Shown here: positions 3,506 through 49,086 of the stretch, piece by piece
Layout: each line of letters starts with the position of its first letter
Position numbering within the stretch: the stretch's first letter is position 1
From: a virus
Taxonomy: Duplodnaviria; Heunggongvirae; Uroviricota; Caudoviricetes
Strand: one strand, 5' to 3'
IMG/VR virus record: IMGVR_UViG_2728369393_000007
DNA length: 64,000 nt
Notes under the pieces: model-generated
What the model saw: the letters and a program-made list of their open reading frames with translations, nothing else
Database searches by the model: none
What the model was told of the DNA's origin: nothing
Program-made: the position numbers and the translations under genes

Positions 3506-3840
3506 CATCCTCGTCCTTCAGGACGTGGATTCTTTTTCCGGATGCCGCGCCAGCGGCATGTAGGGGCAGCTCACAAAACGGAAAAAATTGTACGCTAAGC
3601 CTCGCCAGGTGAACTGAATTCATTCCGATATGGGAATTCCCATATCGGGCGAAAACGGTTTGCTGTAACGGCAGAGTTAAGTAGGATTGCTGCGGGTGCT
3701 TGAGGCTATCTGCCTCGGGCATGAACACCAACGGCAGATAGATAAAAGCCCCACCCGACTATAAATCGAAGTGAGGCCCCTATATGCTCGTCACATATAG
3801 ATTGCCTCTTACGGACCGAAAGGTCAAGGAGAAGCAGGCT

Positions 3841-3996
3841 ATGAAGCAGCAAAAGGCGATGTTAATCGCCCTGATCGTCATCTGTTTAACCGTCATAGTG
3901 ACGGCACTGGTAACGAGGAAAGACCTCTGCGAGGTACGAATCCGAACCGGCCAGACGGAGGTCGCTGTCTTCACAGCTTACGAACCTGAGGAGTAA
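3841..3996 (+). CDS. hokD: Hok/Gef family type I toxin (HokD/RelF-like)
   Basis: 51 aa MKQQKAMLIALIVICLTVIVTALVTRKDLCEVRIRTGQTEVAVFTAYEPEE, AGGAG RBS; single TM helix. Confidence 0.8.
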   Translation: MKQQKAMLIALIVICLTVIVTALVTRKDLCEVRIRTGQTEVAVFTAYEPEE

Positions 3997-7075: not shown

Positions 7076-7141
7076 TGCCACTTATCTCGGATAGACATGG
7101 TGAATGCGCTGGTGGAGGAGATAAGGGTGATTTTTGTATGC

Positions 7142-7170
7142 TTGCAACATTGATTTCGTAACGTTATTAT
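7142..7170 (+). promoter_or_regulatory. sigma70-like promoter for the tRNA cluster
   Basis: TTGCAA-17 bp-TATTAT followed by GC-rich discriminator, ~10 bp before tRNA 5' end. Confidence 0.45.
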
Positions 7171-7179
7171 CCTGCGCCC

Positions 7180-7255
7180 GGCCCTTTAGCTCAGTGGTGA
7201 GAGCGAGCGACTCATAATCGCCAGGTCGCTGGTTCAAATCCAGCAAGGGCCACCA
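7180..7255 (+). tRNA. ileZ: tRNA with CAU anticodon, Ile2 (lysidine)-type, phage ileZ-like
   Basis: Cloverleaf GGCCCTT/AAGGGCC acceptor, GCTC/GAGC D-stem, CTCATAA anticodon loop, TTCAAAT T-loop, encoded CCA. Confidence 0.8.
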
Positions 7256-7256
7256 A

Positions 7257-7332
7257 CCGCCACTAGCCATCAGGAAAGAGCGTCAACCCTTTAAGTTGAG
7301 TGTGCGAGGTTCGAGTCCCCGGTGGTGGTCCA
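7257..7332 (+). tRNA. tRNA-like sequence at the argN position, non-canonical
   Basis: 76 nt, good acceptor (one G-U), TTCGAGT T-loop and encoded CCA, but D-stem pairs only 2 bp and anticodon loop CCTTTAA has C33. Confidence 0.4.
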
Positions 7333-7345
7333 TTATCGGTATTCT

Positions 7346-7420
7346 GCGTTGTTAGCTCAGCAGGACAGAGCAATTGCCTTCTAAGCAATCGGTCACTGGT
7401 TCGACTCCAGTACAACGCGC
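7346..7420 (+). tRNA. argO: tRNA-Arg (UCU), phage argO-like
   Basis: GCGTTGT/ACAACGC acceptor, GCTC/GAGC D-stem, ATTGC-CTTCTAA-GCAAT anticodon arm, TTCGACT T-loop. Confidence 0.75.
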
Positions 7421-7435
7421 TACACTTATTTTCCC

Positions 7436-7459
7436 GGCTCGCTTTTGCGGGCCTTTTTT
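7436..7459 (+). terminator. rho-independent terminator after tRNA cluster
   Basis: 7-bp stem (one G-U) with TTTT loop followed by T6. Confidence 0.5.
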
Positions 7460-7592
7460 GTATCTGCGCCACGCCCGGCGCATACCAACCACAGAGCCTT
7501 TCGGGGGGGGAGCTTACGGAGTGGTCAGTGTGACTTTCTCTGTGGGCAGATCGCTCCCGGGCGTTGGCTCACCCACCCAAAGGAACGTCACG

Positions 7593-8025
7593 ATGTTTGG
7601 TATTTTTGGTAAAAAAAGCCCGCAGAGCGGCAACGGAAATTAAAAAGTTTGAAAAACGCGATCTGGCACAGGTGGTGATTAACGCCGCATACCTGGTGGC
7701 CTATGCAGATGGTGAATGTGAGGCTTCCTAGAAAGCGAAGATCGAACAGGTACTGCGTAATCAGCCTGCGCTGTACGCGTTTACGTCAGAAATTAATGCG
7801 ATTAGCGCAACCATTATCGGTCAGCTGGATACGAACTTTAAAACTGGTCGTCGTGCGGTGTTACGTGAGATCGAGGATGTGAAACACGATACGCGTGAAG
7901 CGGAAGATGTGCTGGATGTGGCGGTGGCCATTGCGGAGGCAGACGGCGAAATTGAGCCGGAAGAGCGCAAGGTGCTGGAAGAGATTGCCGGTGTTCTGGG
8001 TCTTCGTCTGGAGAATTACCTGTGA
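7593..8025 (+). pseudogene. TerB-like (tellurite-resistance TerB fold) gene, disrupted
   Basis: ATG 7593 with AAAGGA RBS gives MFGIFGKKSPQSGNGN*; +1 frame from 7636 continues …EIKKFEKRDLAQVVINAAYLVAYADGECEAS(TAG)KAKIEQVL…DGEIEPEERKVLEEIAGVLGL; frameshift in A7 run 7611-7617 plus in-frame TAG 7729-7731. Confidence 0.55.
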
Positions 8026-8189: not shown

Positions 8190-8390
8190 TTTTTTTGTTT
8201 GCTGTTTATTAAAAACACTTCTGCATGGTGAATCCCCCTGTGCGGTGGGGCAATCAGCAAGAAGGAATATGGGGTAATCGCGGATTCAGGTGCTGATACT
8301 GAATTCACCGGGAGGCACCCGGCACCATGCTTTGCCACAAAAGTGTTATTTCTGTTTTTCTCAAACTATCATCGTTATCCCTTTATTTTC

Positions 8391-48679: not shown

Positions 48680-49086
48680 AAAAAAGCCGGGAGTAACCCG
48701 GCTCACTCAACATCAATAACGGGGAGCTGTTTCGCATAAAACGGCTCCGAAACATCCAAGAACAGTTCTAAAGATATCAGCAGCTATATGATCATTTCAA
48801 GACCAAATATTGATTCTGCAATTTCGGGACGTTACACTGTCTCCGCACCTTATAAAGCGGGTGCCGGGGTCGCAGCCCGGAATTGCTCGAGGCGATATAC
48901 GACGCGCCAGCGTCTTTTTTATCGTCCATGCTCGCGCACGCCAGAATTATGGTGGGCTGGGCAGGGGAGCCGAAAGGCTCGCCGGTTTCCTTGAGCGCCG
49001 GTACTGCGAACCCTGTTCAGTTCACCACCCATGAGTTTCGCAGCTCCGGTGGTGGAAGTTTTTCACTGCTCAAGGAGGCTGCCATC

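Follow-up and report, generated by a model that had tools for sequence, protein, structure and literature searches.

The middle gene of the three-tRNA cluster in the window (the whole 64,000-nt stretch analysed, from virus record IMGVR_UViG_2728369393_000007) is best explained as a decaying copy of the tRNA gene that occupies the second position, or slot 2, of the arrays found in the late regions of lambdoid prophages, and not as a working decoder. We place the probability of this reading at roughly 0.65. The gene, at 7257-7332, is homologous over its full length to hundreds of prophage tRNA genes and is not a chance match. In the scheme that we favor, the ancestral slot-2 gene would have been a tRNA-Arg, with the anticodon UCG (argN) or UCU. 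In one lineage the anticodon loop would have changed from CUUCUAA or UUUCUAA to CCUUUAA, producing a UUU anticodon and an unusual C33, and the copy in the window would afterwards have lost T12, so that its D stem collapsed.

Results

Structure and annotation of the middle tRNA gene

The features of the tRNA unit are collected in Table 1.

Table 1. Features of the three-gene tRNA unit (window coordinates)
Feature	Position	Strand	Basis
Sigma-70-like promoter, TTGCAA-17-TATTAT, 9 nt upstream of the first tRNA	7142..7170	+	consensus scan only
ileZ-type tRNA, anticodon CAU	7180..7255	+	ARAGORN; Rfam 72.5 bits; RefSeq tRNA-Ile
Slot-2 Lys-type tRNA gene, 76 nt, D-stem deletion	7257..7332	+	ARAGORN tRNA-Lys(ttt)
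D arm: pairs G10-C25 and C11-G24 only; T12 absent between 7267 and 7268	7266..7281	+	alignments
Anticodon arm: stem TCAAC/GTTGA, loop CCTTTAA (C32 C33 U34 U35 U36 A37 A38), 3' strand G39 U40 U41	7283..7299	+	
T arm: stem CGAGG/CCCCG with A51·C63 mismatch, canonical loop TTCGAGT	7305..7321	+	
3' acceptor strand GTGGTGG, discriminator U73, encoded CCA	7322..7332	+	
argO-type tRNA-Arg(UCU)	7346..7420	+	ARAGORN tct; Rfam 68.1 bits; RefSeq tRNA-Arg 7346-7419
Terminator-like hairpin GGCTCGCTTTTGCGGGCC followed by a T run	7436..7462	+	consensus scan only

A first-pass annotation of this DNA, made from the letters alone, had described the middle gene as a structurally aberrant tRNA, and most of its details hold. 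ARAGORN placed a 76-nt tRNA at the same position. The acceptor stem, CCGCCAC/GTGGTGG, is paired at 7/7 positions (six Watson-Crick pairs and one G·U) and the CCA is encoded. The D stem has two Watson-Crick pairs, as had been stated, and so falls short of the 3-4 bp of a cloverleaf, and the anticodon stem is paired at 5/5 positions. The loop at 7288-7294 is indeed CCTTTAA, with C33 at 7289 and UUU at 7290-7292. The T arm had been called good; this is true of its loop but not of its stem, which is paired at only 4/5 positions because of the A51·C63 mismatch (7307/7319). A 3-bp D stem can also be drawn for this sequence, in which G10-C25, C11-G24 and C12-G22 pair and A23 is bulged. The anticodon loop has the expected 7 nt but lacks the conserved U33, the residue that enforces the U-turn; it is replaced by C in the window copy and in all the Lys-type alleles described below. 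Folding by minimum free energy was discarded as evidence for structure, since the high-scoring ileZ gene also gave no cloverleaf by this method and the z-scores were weak for all slot-2 alleles.

The Rfam tRNA covariance model (RF00005) has a curated gathering threshold of 29 bits, and at this threshold it finds no match at 7257-7332. In a permissive search (E<=10) of positions 7100-7500, all that the middle tRNA leaves after clan competition is a match to tRNA-Sec, with 15.7 bits and E = 2.1, and its score as an ordinary tRNA is below 15.7 bits. This may be compared with 44.4 bits for the commonest intact Lys-type allele (a000), 37.0 for the intact allele of phage Evi, 43.0 for argN(UCG) of phage 2851, 68-70 for argO and 72.5 for ileZ. 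The spacer nucleotide at 7256, A(-1), can pair with U73 (7329) and lengthen the acceptor helix to 8 bp, which probably explains why the weak match is to tRNA-Sec and why it begins at 7256; in other alleles position -1 is G. The ARAGORN call is also marginal. It is lost once the threshold exceeds 102% of the default, compared with 112% for intact Lys-type genes and 116-122% for canonical tRNAs. RefSeq carries no annotation at 7257-7332 in the source genome, nor at the corresponding gene in O26 RM10386 or E2348/69, while the flanking tRNA-Ile and tRNA-Arg are annotated. The GenBank depositors of the PPompW prophages, on the other hand, annotated the trio as tRNA-Met, tRNA-Lys and tRNA-Arg.

Slot-2 genes and the origin of the Lys-type lineage

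Two scans of IMG/VR, anchored on ileZ and the tRNA next to slot 2, yielded 248 arrays. The 89 complete trios among them contain 51 alleles of slot 2, compared with 12 of argO and two of ileZ. Across 49 distinct slot-2 alleles of 77 nt, 96.3% of the cells of the cloverleaf are paired and five pairs show compensatory double changes; no shuffle matched the observed covariation score, and slid controls paired in only 29-53% of the cells. Since the cloverleaf has been kept across these alleles, the slot-2 family evolved as a tRNA. The alleles fall into Arg(UCG), Arg(UCU), Lys-type and several broken forms.

The argN genes of Stx-converting lambdoid phages (phage 2851, Stx2a_WGPS6 and the 933W type) have in common with the window copy the slot between ileZ and argO, the flanking genes and the scaffold, including C1-G72, U73, the encoded CCA and A20; the argN of phage 2851 has the CGAGG/CCCCG T stem as well. 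The alignment with Stx-phage argN that the first-pass annotation had suggested as a check bears out the homology, with about 85% identity to argN(UCG), and locates the differences. These are in the loop (CUUCGAA in argN, CCUUUAA here), in the anticodon stem (C/TCAGC/GCTGG in argN, TCAAC/GTTGA here) and at T12, which the window copy lacks. The first-pass annotation was mistaken in one respect, having expected Arg(CCU) as the anticodon of argN. In fact argN reads UCG: the record for phage 2851 states 'codon recognized: CGA', and the argN of Stx2a_WGPS6 is Arg(tcg). In the window copy positions 34-36 are UUU, so that the Arg anticodon is missing together with C35, the main identity element for ArgRS, although A20 is kept.

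It is hardly credible, for the following reasons, that the gene is a canonical tRNA-Arg (argN) made to look aberrant only by the fold chosen or by a sequencing error. Its place between ileZ and argO and its identity to argN(UCG) are what such a gene would show, but there is no Arg anticodon at 34-36, the sole CCT lies at 32-34, and neither the Rfam tRNA model nor the RefSeq pipeline makes an Arg call. Sequencing or assembly error is contradicted by the recurrence of the sequence in 221 complete genomes, 11 PPompW records and IMG/VR contigs. A high-scoring canonical tRNA-Arg, the one outcome that the first-pass annotation had said would overturn its view, was therefore not obtained. Nor is there support for reading the loop in another frame, whether as CCU at 32-34 or as an ochre-suppressing UUA at 35-37; the stem offers no other register.

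The nearest canonical relative of the Lys-type genes is an Arg(UCU) allele, a070, from the IMG/VR locus L237. It occurs in Ile-X-Thr-Gly arrays and is identical to the Lys-type in the D loop, the variable loop, the anticodon stem and the 5' strand of the T arm. Seven of 77 positions distinguish it from a000, namely a compensatory 4:69 pair, position 26, U32C, U33C, C35U and U63C. Thus a070 possesses U33, C35 and an A51-U63 pair, all three of which are altered in the Lys-type, and to these changes the window copy adds the T12 deletion. On this alignment, the Lys-type can be identified as an Arg(UCU)-type gene that has switched its anticodon identity and has gained C33 and A51·C63. The A51·C63 mismatch is shared by most Lys-type alleles and by the argN of phage 2851.

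Two other interpretations of the anticodon arm were considered and set aside. Compared with the argN of phage 2851, the window copy has A30-U40 in place of G30-C40 and U27-A43 in place of U27·G43, which might be taken as compensatory change under selection on this copy; the stem, however, is inherited from Arg(UCU)-type alleles such as a010 and a070 and is thus uninformative about the Lys-type lineage. Host lysT was dismissed as a donor of the arm by recombination, since the anticodon stem of E. coli tRNA-Lys is different and that of slot 2 agrees with the slot-2 Arg(UCU) alleles. In the searchable papers ileZ, argN and argO were not found together, and the comparative paper on pR' makes no mention of tRNAs.

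A shared loop and a private deletion

The CCTTTAA loop and the TCAAC/GTTGA stem are common to alleles with an intact GCTC/GAGC D stem, including those of phage Evi, E. coli RM14723 and many prophages. In many prophages the intact Lys-type gene sits downstream of Q in an Ile(CAU)-Lys(UUU)-Thr(UGU)-Gly(UCC) array, and this array is carried by the isolated inducible temperate phages vB_EcoM-606R7, vB_EcoS-689R5 and PhiR47_1; we found no description of it in the searchable literature. About 300 complete E. coli genomes contain intact alleles that RefSeq annotates as tRNA-Lys. A scan of species-representative genomes for the anticodon arm gave tRNA matches in E. coli and Shigella only. Matches in Bacteroidota, Planctomycetes and Melioribacteraceae were rejected as due to chance, there being no tRNA at those places.

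The window allele differs from a000 in two respects only, the loss of T12 and C70T. It is one position away from a second allele, a030, which in turn differs from a000 by the T12 deletion alone. The weak D stem of the window copy is therefore due to a one-nucleotide deletion relative to otherwise identical alleles, and this deletion costs more than 20 Rfam bits. The deletion is found both with T70, where argO lies downstream, and with C70, where a Thr gene does. The UUU/C33 loop is unchanged in about 20 sampled alleles, with the exception of one C32T variant, a near-invariance that is not significant with so few events.

These comparisons place the change of the loop before the loss of T12. 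They also bear on the alternative left by the first-pass annotation, which had proposed either a decaying tRNA or one with altered decoding. Decay suits the window copy, given its deletion, its loss of score and the absence of a RefSeq call. Altered decoding has some basis too, but as a trait of the whole lineage and not as a peculiarity of this copy. By its U34 U35 U36 the copy would be a tRNA-Lys(UUU), but it has U in place of A at position 73, and its body shares its homology with the slot-2 tRNA-Arg genes; and it has the structure-breaking lesion, absent from intact homologues, that is expected of a tRNA pseudogene.

Intact and broken alleles in E. coli

Exact alleles were counted over 5,426 complete E. 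coli genomes. Among the intact forms, a000 was found in 119 genomes with an A spacer and in 159 with a G spacer, the C32T variant in 12 and the Evi allele in 9. Three broken forms were counted: the window allele in 221 genomes, an allele with T8C, C4T and C11T in 160, and an allele with a deletion in the anticodon arm, mainly from O157, in 390. Broken copies of the Lys lineage thus outnumber intact ones by about 2.5 to 1, and RefSeq annotates none of the three broken forms as a tRNA; the lineage has decayed more than once. The window allele is present in EPEC E2348/69, as part of the exact trio, and in serotypes O26, O103, O111, O145, O55:H7 and O127:H6.

Several observations weigh against decay. 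The exact window allele is common and is spread across many serotypes, from which it follows that it is at least well tolerated. In addition, no damage is seen in the acceptor stem, T loop, CCA or anticodon arm, and the gene is still recognized by ARAGORN. The occurrence of the T12 deletion on two backgrounds and the 3-bp D stem that can be drawn with a bulged A23 count on the same side. On the other hand, a hand tally of the Lys-type alleles shows that about 8/13 stem substitutions keep pairing, a figure roughly equalled by transitions alone, so that this tally gives no positive sign of purifying selection on the Lys-type as a tRNA.

Two severely damaged classes of slot 2 were seen among the IMG/VR loci. 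One, of 80 nt and with a rearranged body (L012, L017, L019 and others), is the allele most often met in the sampled Ile-X-argO arrays. The other, a 66-nt class that has lost 12 nt of the anticodon arm (L004, L013, L051, L057 and about 390 E. coli genomes), occurs in O157 and Stx2c phages. ARAGORN detects neither class at thresholds down to 60%. In one array (L197) the first, ileZ-like tRNA has the anticodon TAT instead of CAT.

The tRNA unit and its prophage

A consensus scan found 3 promoter-like sites, compared with 0.4 expected in shuffles. The site at 7142-7170 is probably the start of the three-gene unit and the hairpin at 7436-7462 probably its end, judged by their sequences. The middle RNA would then probably still be co-transcribed with ileZ and argO, from the first site to the second. 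The argO copy in the window, like that of phage Evi, ends in CTA (7420-7422) rather than the CCA of the remaining argO alleles; it departs from them in the D and T loops as well and scores 68.1 bits on Rfam, compared with 70.1, from which it appears that the third tRNA has also drifted slightly.

Over its first 55.7 kb the window is 99.6-100% identical to E. coli CFSAN004176 (NZ_CP014583). The trio matches PPompW prophage records with 100% identity, and 11 of these records carry the sequence. The lambdoid prophage that houses it is damaged: IS600 interrupts the terminase gene, the capsid and portal genes are frameshifted, and TerB is represented by a pseudogene. PPompW prophages have been reported to be universally defective (PMC8112680).

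Several other features of the window were recorded. A sok antitoxin RNA (103.9 bits) lies beside hokD at 3694-3996, the TerB-family gene with an internal stop occupies 7597-8025, and just downstream of the tRNA unit there is a match to the STnc100 sRNA (100.8 bits, 8194-8366). The type III secretion effector genes nleA, nleH1-2, nleF, nleG and espM1 are found at about 30.1-38.4 kb, and are followed by a second integrase and excisionase (41.4-42.7 kb) and an early region with matches to isrK and C4 RNA (48845-49032). A prophage has inserted into a prophage here, as described for PPompW. Past about 55.7 kb the window diverges from NZ_CP014583; that record has a second Ile-Arg-Arg trio and stx2a, both of which are absent from the window.

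Predicted processing and decoding of the window copy

Bacterial RNase P needs only an acceptor/T-arm minihelix and a CCA. Because the acceptor stem, T arm and CCA have been kept, RNase P would probably still excise the window copy from the transcript. The product, however, is expected to decode little or nothing, given its broken D arm, C33, A51·C63 and U73. It would probably also be without t6A37. C33 (U33C) prevents formation of t6A by E. coli TsaBCDE on tRNA-fMet (PMC8887486), and TsaD contacts the pairs 10:25, 11:24 and 12:23 (PMC13276492), the region disrupted here, although this argument is extrapolated from tRNA-fMet and tRNA-Thr. The initiator tRNA-Met of multicellular eukaryotes also has C33, a described exception to the general U33 among ANN-decoding tRNAs (PMC8887486), but it is unrelated to the window copy in sequence, domain of life and role.

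It was of interest to consider whether a copy that no longer decodes might be kept as a tRNA-shaped punctuation element, at which cleavage by RNase P frees the 3' end of ileZ and separates the members of the array. Selection would then act only on the acceptor stem, the T arm and the CCA. The distribution of damage in the window copy is of this kind, in that changes affect the D arm and position 33 but spare the acceptor stem, T loop and CCA, and the minimal requirements of RNase P are compatible with it. The spacing is also very tight, with 1 nt (A7256) after the CCA of ileZ and 13 nt before the next gene. A further point is provided by a group of slot-2 genes in Ile-X-Thr-Gly arrays, sub-family B (L132, L148, L155, L176, L189, L205, L208, L244 and others; 5 complete E. 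coli genomes), which have A73 and an 8-nt D loop. All of them share one 68-nt scaffold, set between flanks that are diverged or mosaic, by a crude global alignment on mosaic flanks that shows only that the flanks differ and the scaffold does not. Their loops, in contrast, are 5-6 nt long and hypervariable (TAAAT, TTAAT, TTTAT, ATGAT, GTGAT, CCAGGT, CCAGAT, CATAGT, CTTGGT, CTTGGG and CACGGT). In a decoding tRNA one would expect the opposite of a loop that varies freely on a constant scaffold, and the pattern shows that a slot-2 scaffold can be conserved without a decoding loop. The ARAGORN calls for these genes are Phe, Leu, Stop, Ser or '???', RefSeq leaves them unannotated, and the Rfam tRNA model gives no match at E<=1 in L189.

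Against punctuation, the 11 lesions in decayed Lys-type alleles comprise one in the acceptor stem, two in the T arm, five in the D arm and three in the anticodon arm, with no clear avoidance of the parts that RNase P requires; this is a hand tally and not significant, and such region-wise counts neither support nor exclude the idea. A common UCG allele class has A6·A67 and A52·C62 mismatches, and arrays in which slot 2 has lost its anticodon arm or has a rearranged body show that severe damage at this position is tolerated. On balance we regard punctuation as unlikely.

A working or counter-defense tRNA-Lys?

A different possibility is that the window copy is a working Lys(UUU)-reading tRNA on an Arg-derived body, which supplies tRNA-Lys(UUU), or acts as a decoy for it, when host anticodon nucleases are active. 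PrrC cuts 5' of the wobble base, between positions 33 and 34, and C33 adjoins this site. The AriB nuclease of PARIS cuts between positions 40 and 41 and needs U36AAUC/A41 (the slash marks the cut), and U39A alone abolishes cleavage (PMC12409363); the window RNA would have U36AAGUU41 instead. Thus a UUU anticodon, that of an isoacceptor targeted by these nucleases, is combined with substitutions at the sites where they recognize or cut. Phage tRNA-Lys genes rescue infection from PARIS and PrrC170 (PMC12409363, PMC11555353), and T5's own tRNAs rescue infection from PARIS (PMC12409363). The tRNA-Lys(UUU) of T5, which evades AriB (PMC11464382, PMC12409363), resembles the window copy in being a phage-borne UUU tRNA. 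At positions 39-41 the window copy has G39 U40 U41, T5 has A39 and C41, and the host has U39 C40 A41. The T5 gene, however, is a true tRNA-Lys homologue with a demonstrated function, while that of the window has an Arg-derived body, C33 and U73 and is damaged.

The genomic setting offers further points in favor of this possibility. Intact alleles adjoin a gene for Thr(UGU), the second main target of AriB, and this arrangement is present in the three inducible phages named above. The loop is constant across the sampled alleles apart from the C32T variant. Finally, UUU has arisen a second time and independently, by G35U in a thrU-like tRNA in slot 3 (CTGACTTTTAATCAG), at seven IMG/VR loci (L164, L184, L204, L206, L216, L233 and L261); in the first four of these, slot 2 holds the degenerate Lys-type allele with T8C.

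Several facts argue against it. The window copy has its D-stem deletion and falls below the Rfam threshold, and the body of the Lys-type gene is of the Arg type. It has U73, whereas A73 is an identity element for LysRS. C33 and the lost 12:23 pair disfavor both t6A37 and a normal U-turn. About two thirds of the genomes that bear the lineage hold broken copies. Lastly, in L126 (1587-1740) and other Ile-Lys-Thr-Gly arrays, the genes for Thr(UGU) and Gly(UCC) appear to be the same as thrU and glyT of the host, which would mean capture from the thrU-tyrU-glyT-thrT operon without tyrU; a Thr tRNA identical to that of the host would be sensitive to AriB. We consider it improbable that the window copy works in this way.

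The same idea can be stated for the slot as a whole. Slot 2 may be an Arg-derived scaffold on which the anticodon loop is repeatedly rewritten (UCG, UCU, UUU with C33, and the hypervariable loops of 5-6 nt), the form with UUU, C33 and G39 U40 U41 being an adaptive, nuclease-resistant tRNA-Lys or decoy against PrrC and PARIS, and the window allele being partly active or very recently inactivated. This broader proposal seems to us improbable. As for the intact relatives considered by themselves, the points in favor make a counter-defense role plausible, though with a low probability.

Discussion

As a whole, the homology of the slot, the order of the changes and the damaged state of the prophage are most simply accounted for if the middle tRNA gene is decaying. 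It resembles other prophage tRNA pseudogenes in having a disabling indel, in residing in a defective prophage and in being omitted by an annotation pipeline. It is unlike ordinary tRNA pseudogenes in that its parent lineage had already switched its anticodon identity and is still called as a tRNA.

This has consequences for annotation. The gene is tRNA-Lys in the GenBank entries for PPompW and is omitted by RefSeq; the best course is to regard it as a probable tRNA pseudogene belonging to the argN family, and it should not be counted toward a supply of rare-codon Arg tRNA in the prophages of EHEC and EPEC. A tRNA on an Arg scaffold that has acquired UUU and C33, a lineage for which we found no description in the searchable literature, is present in about 1,000 complete E. 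coli genomes. Its intact relatives, which lie beside Thr(UGU), are candidates for counter-defense tRNAs of temperate phages.
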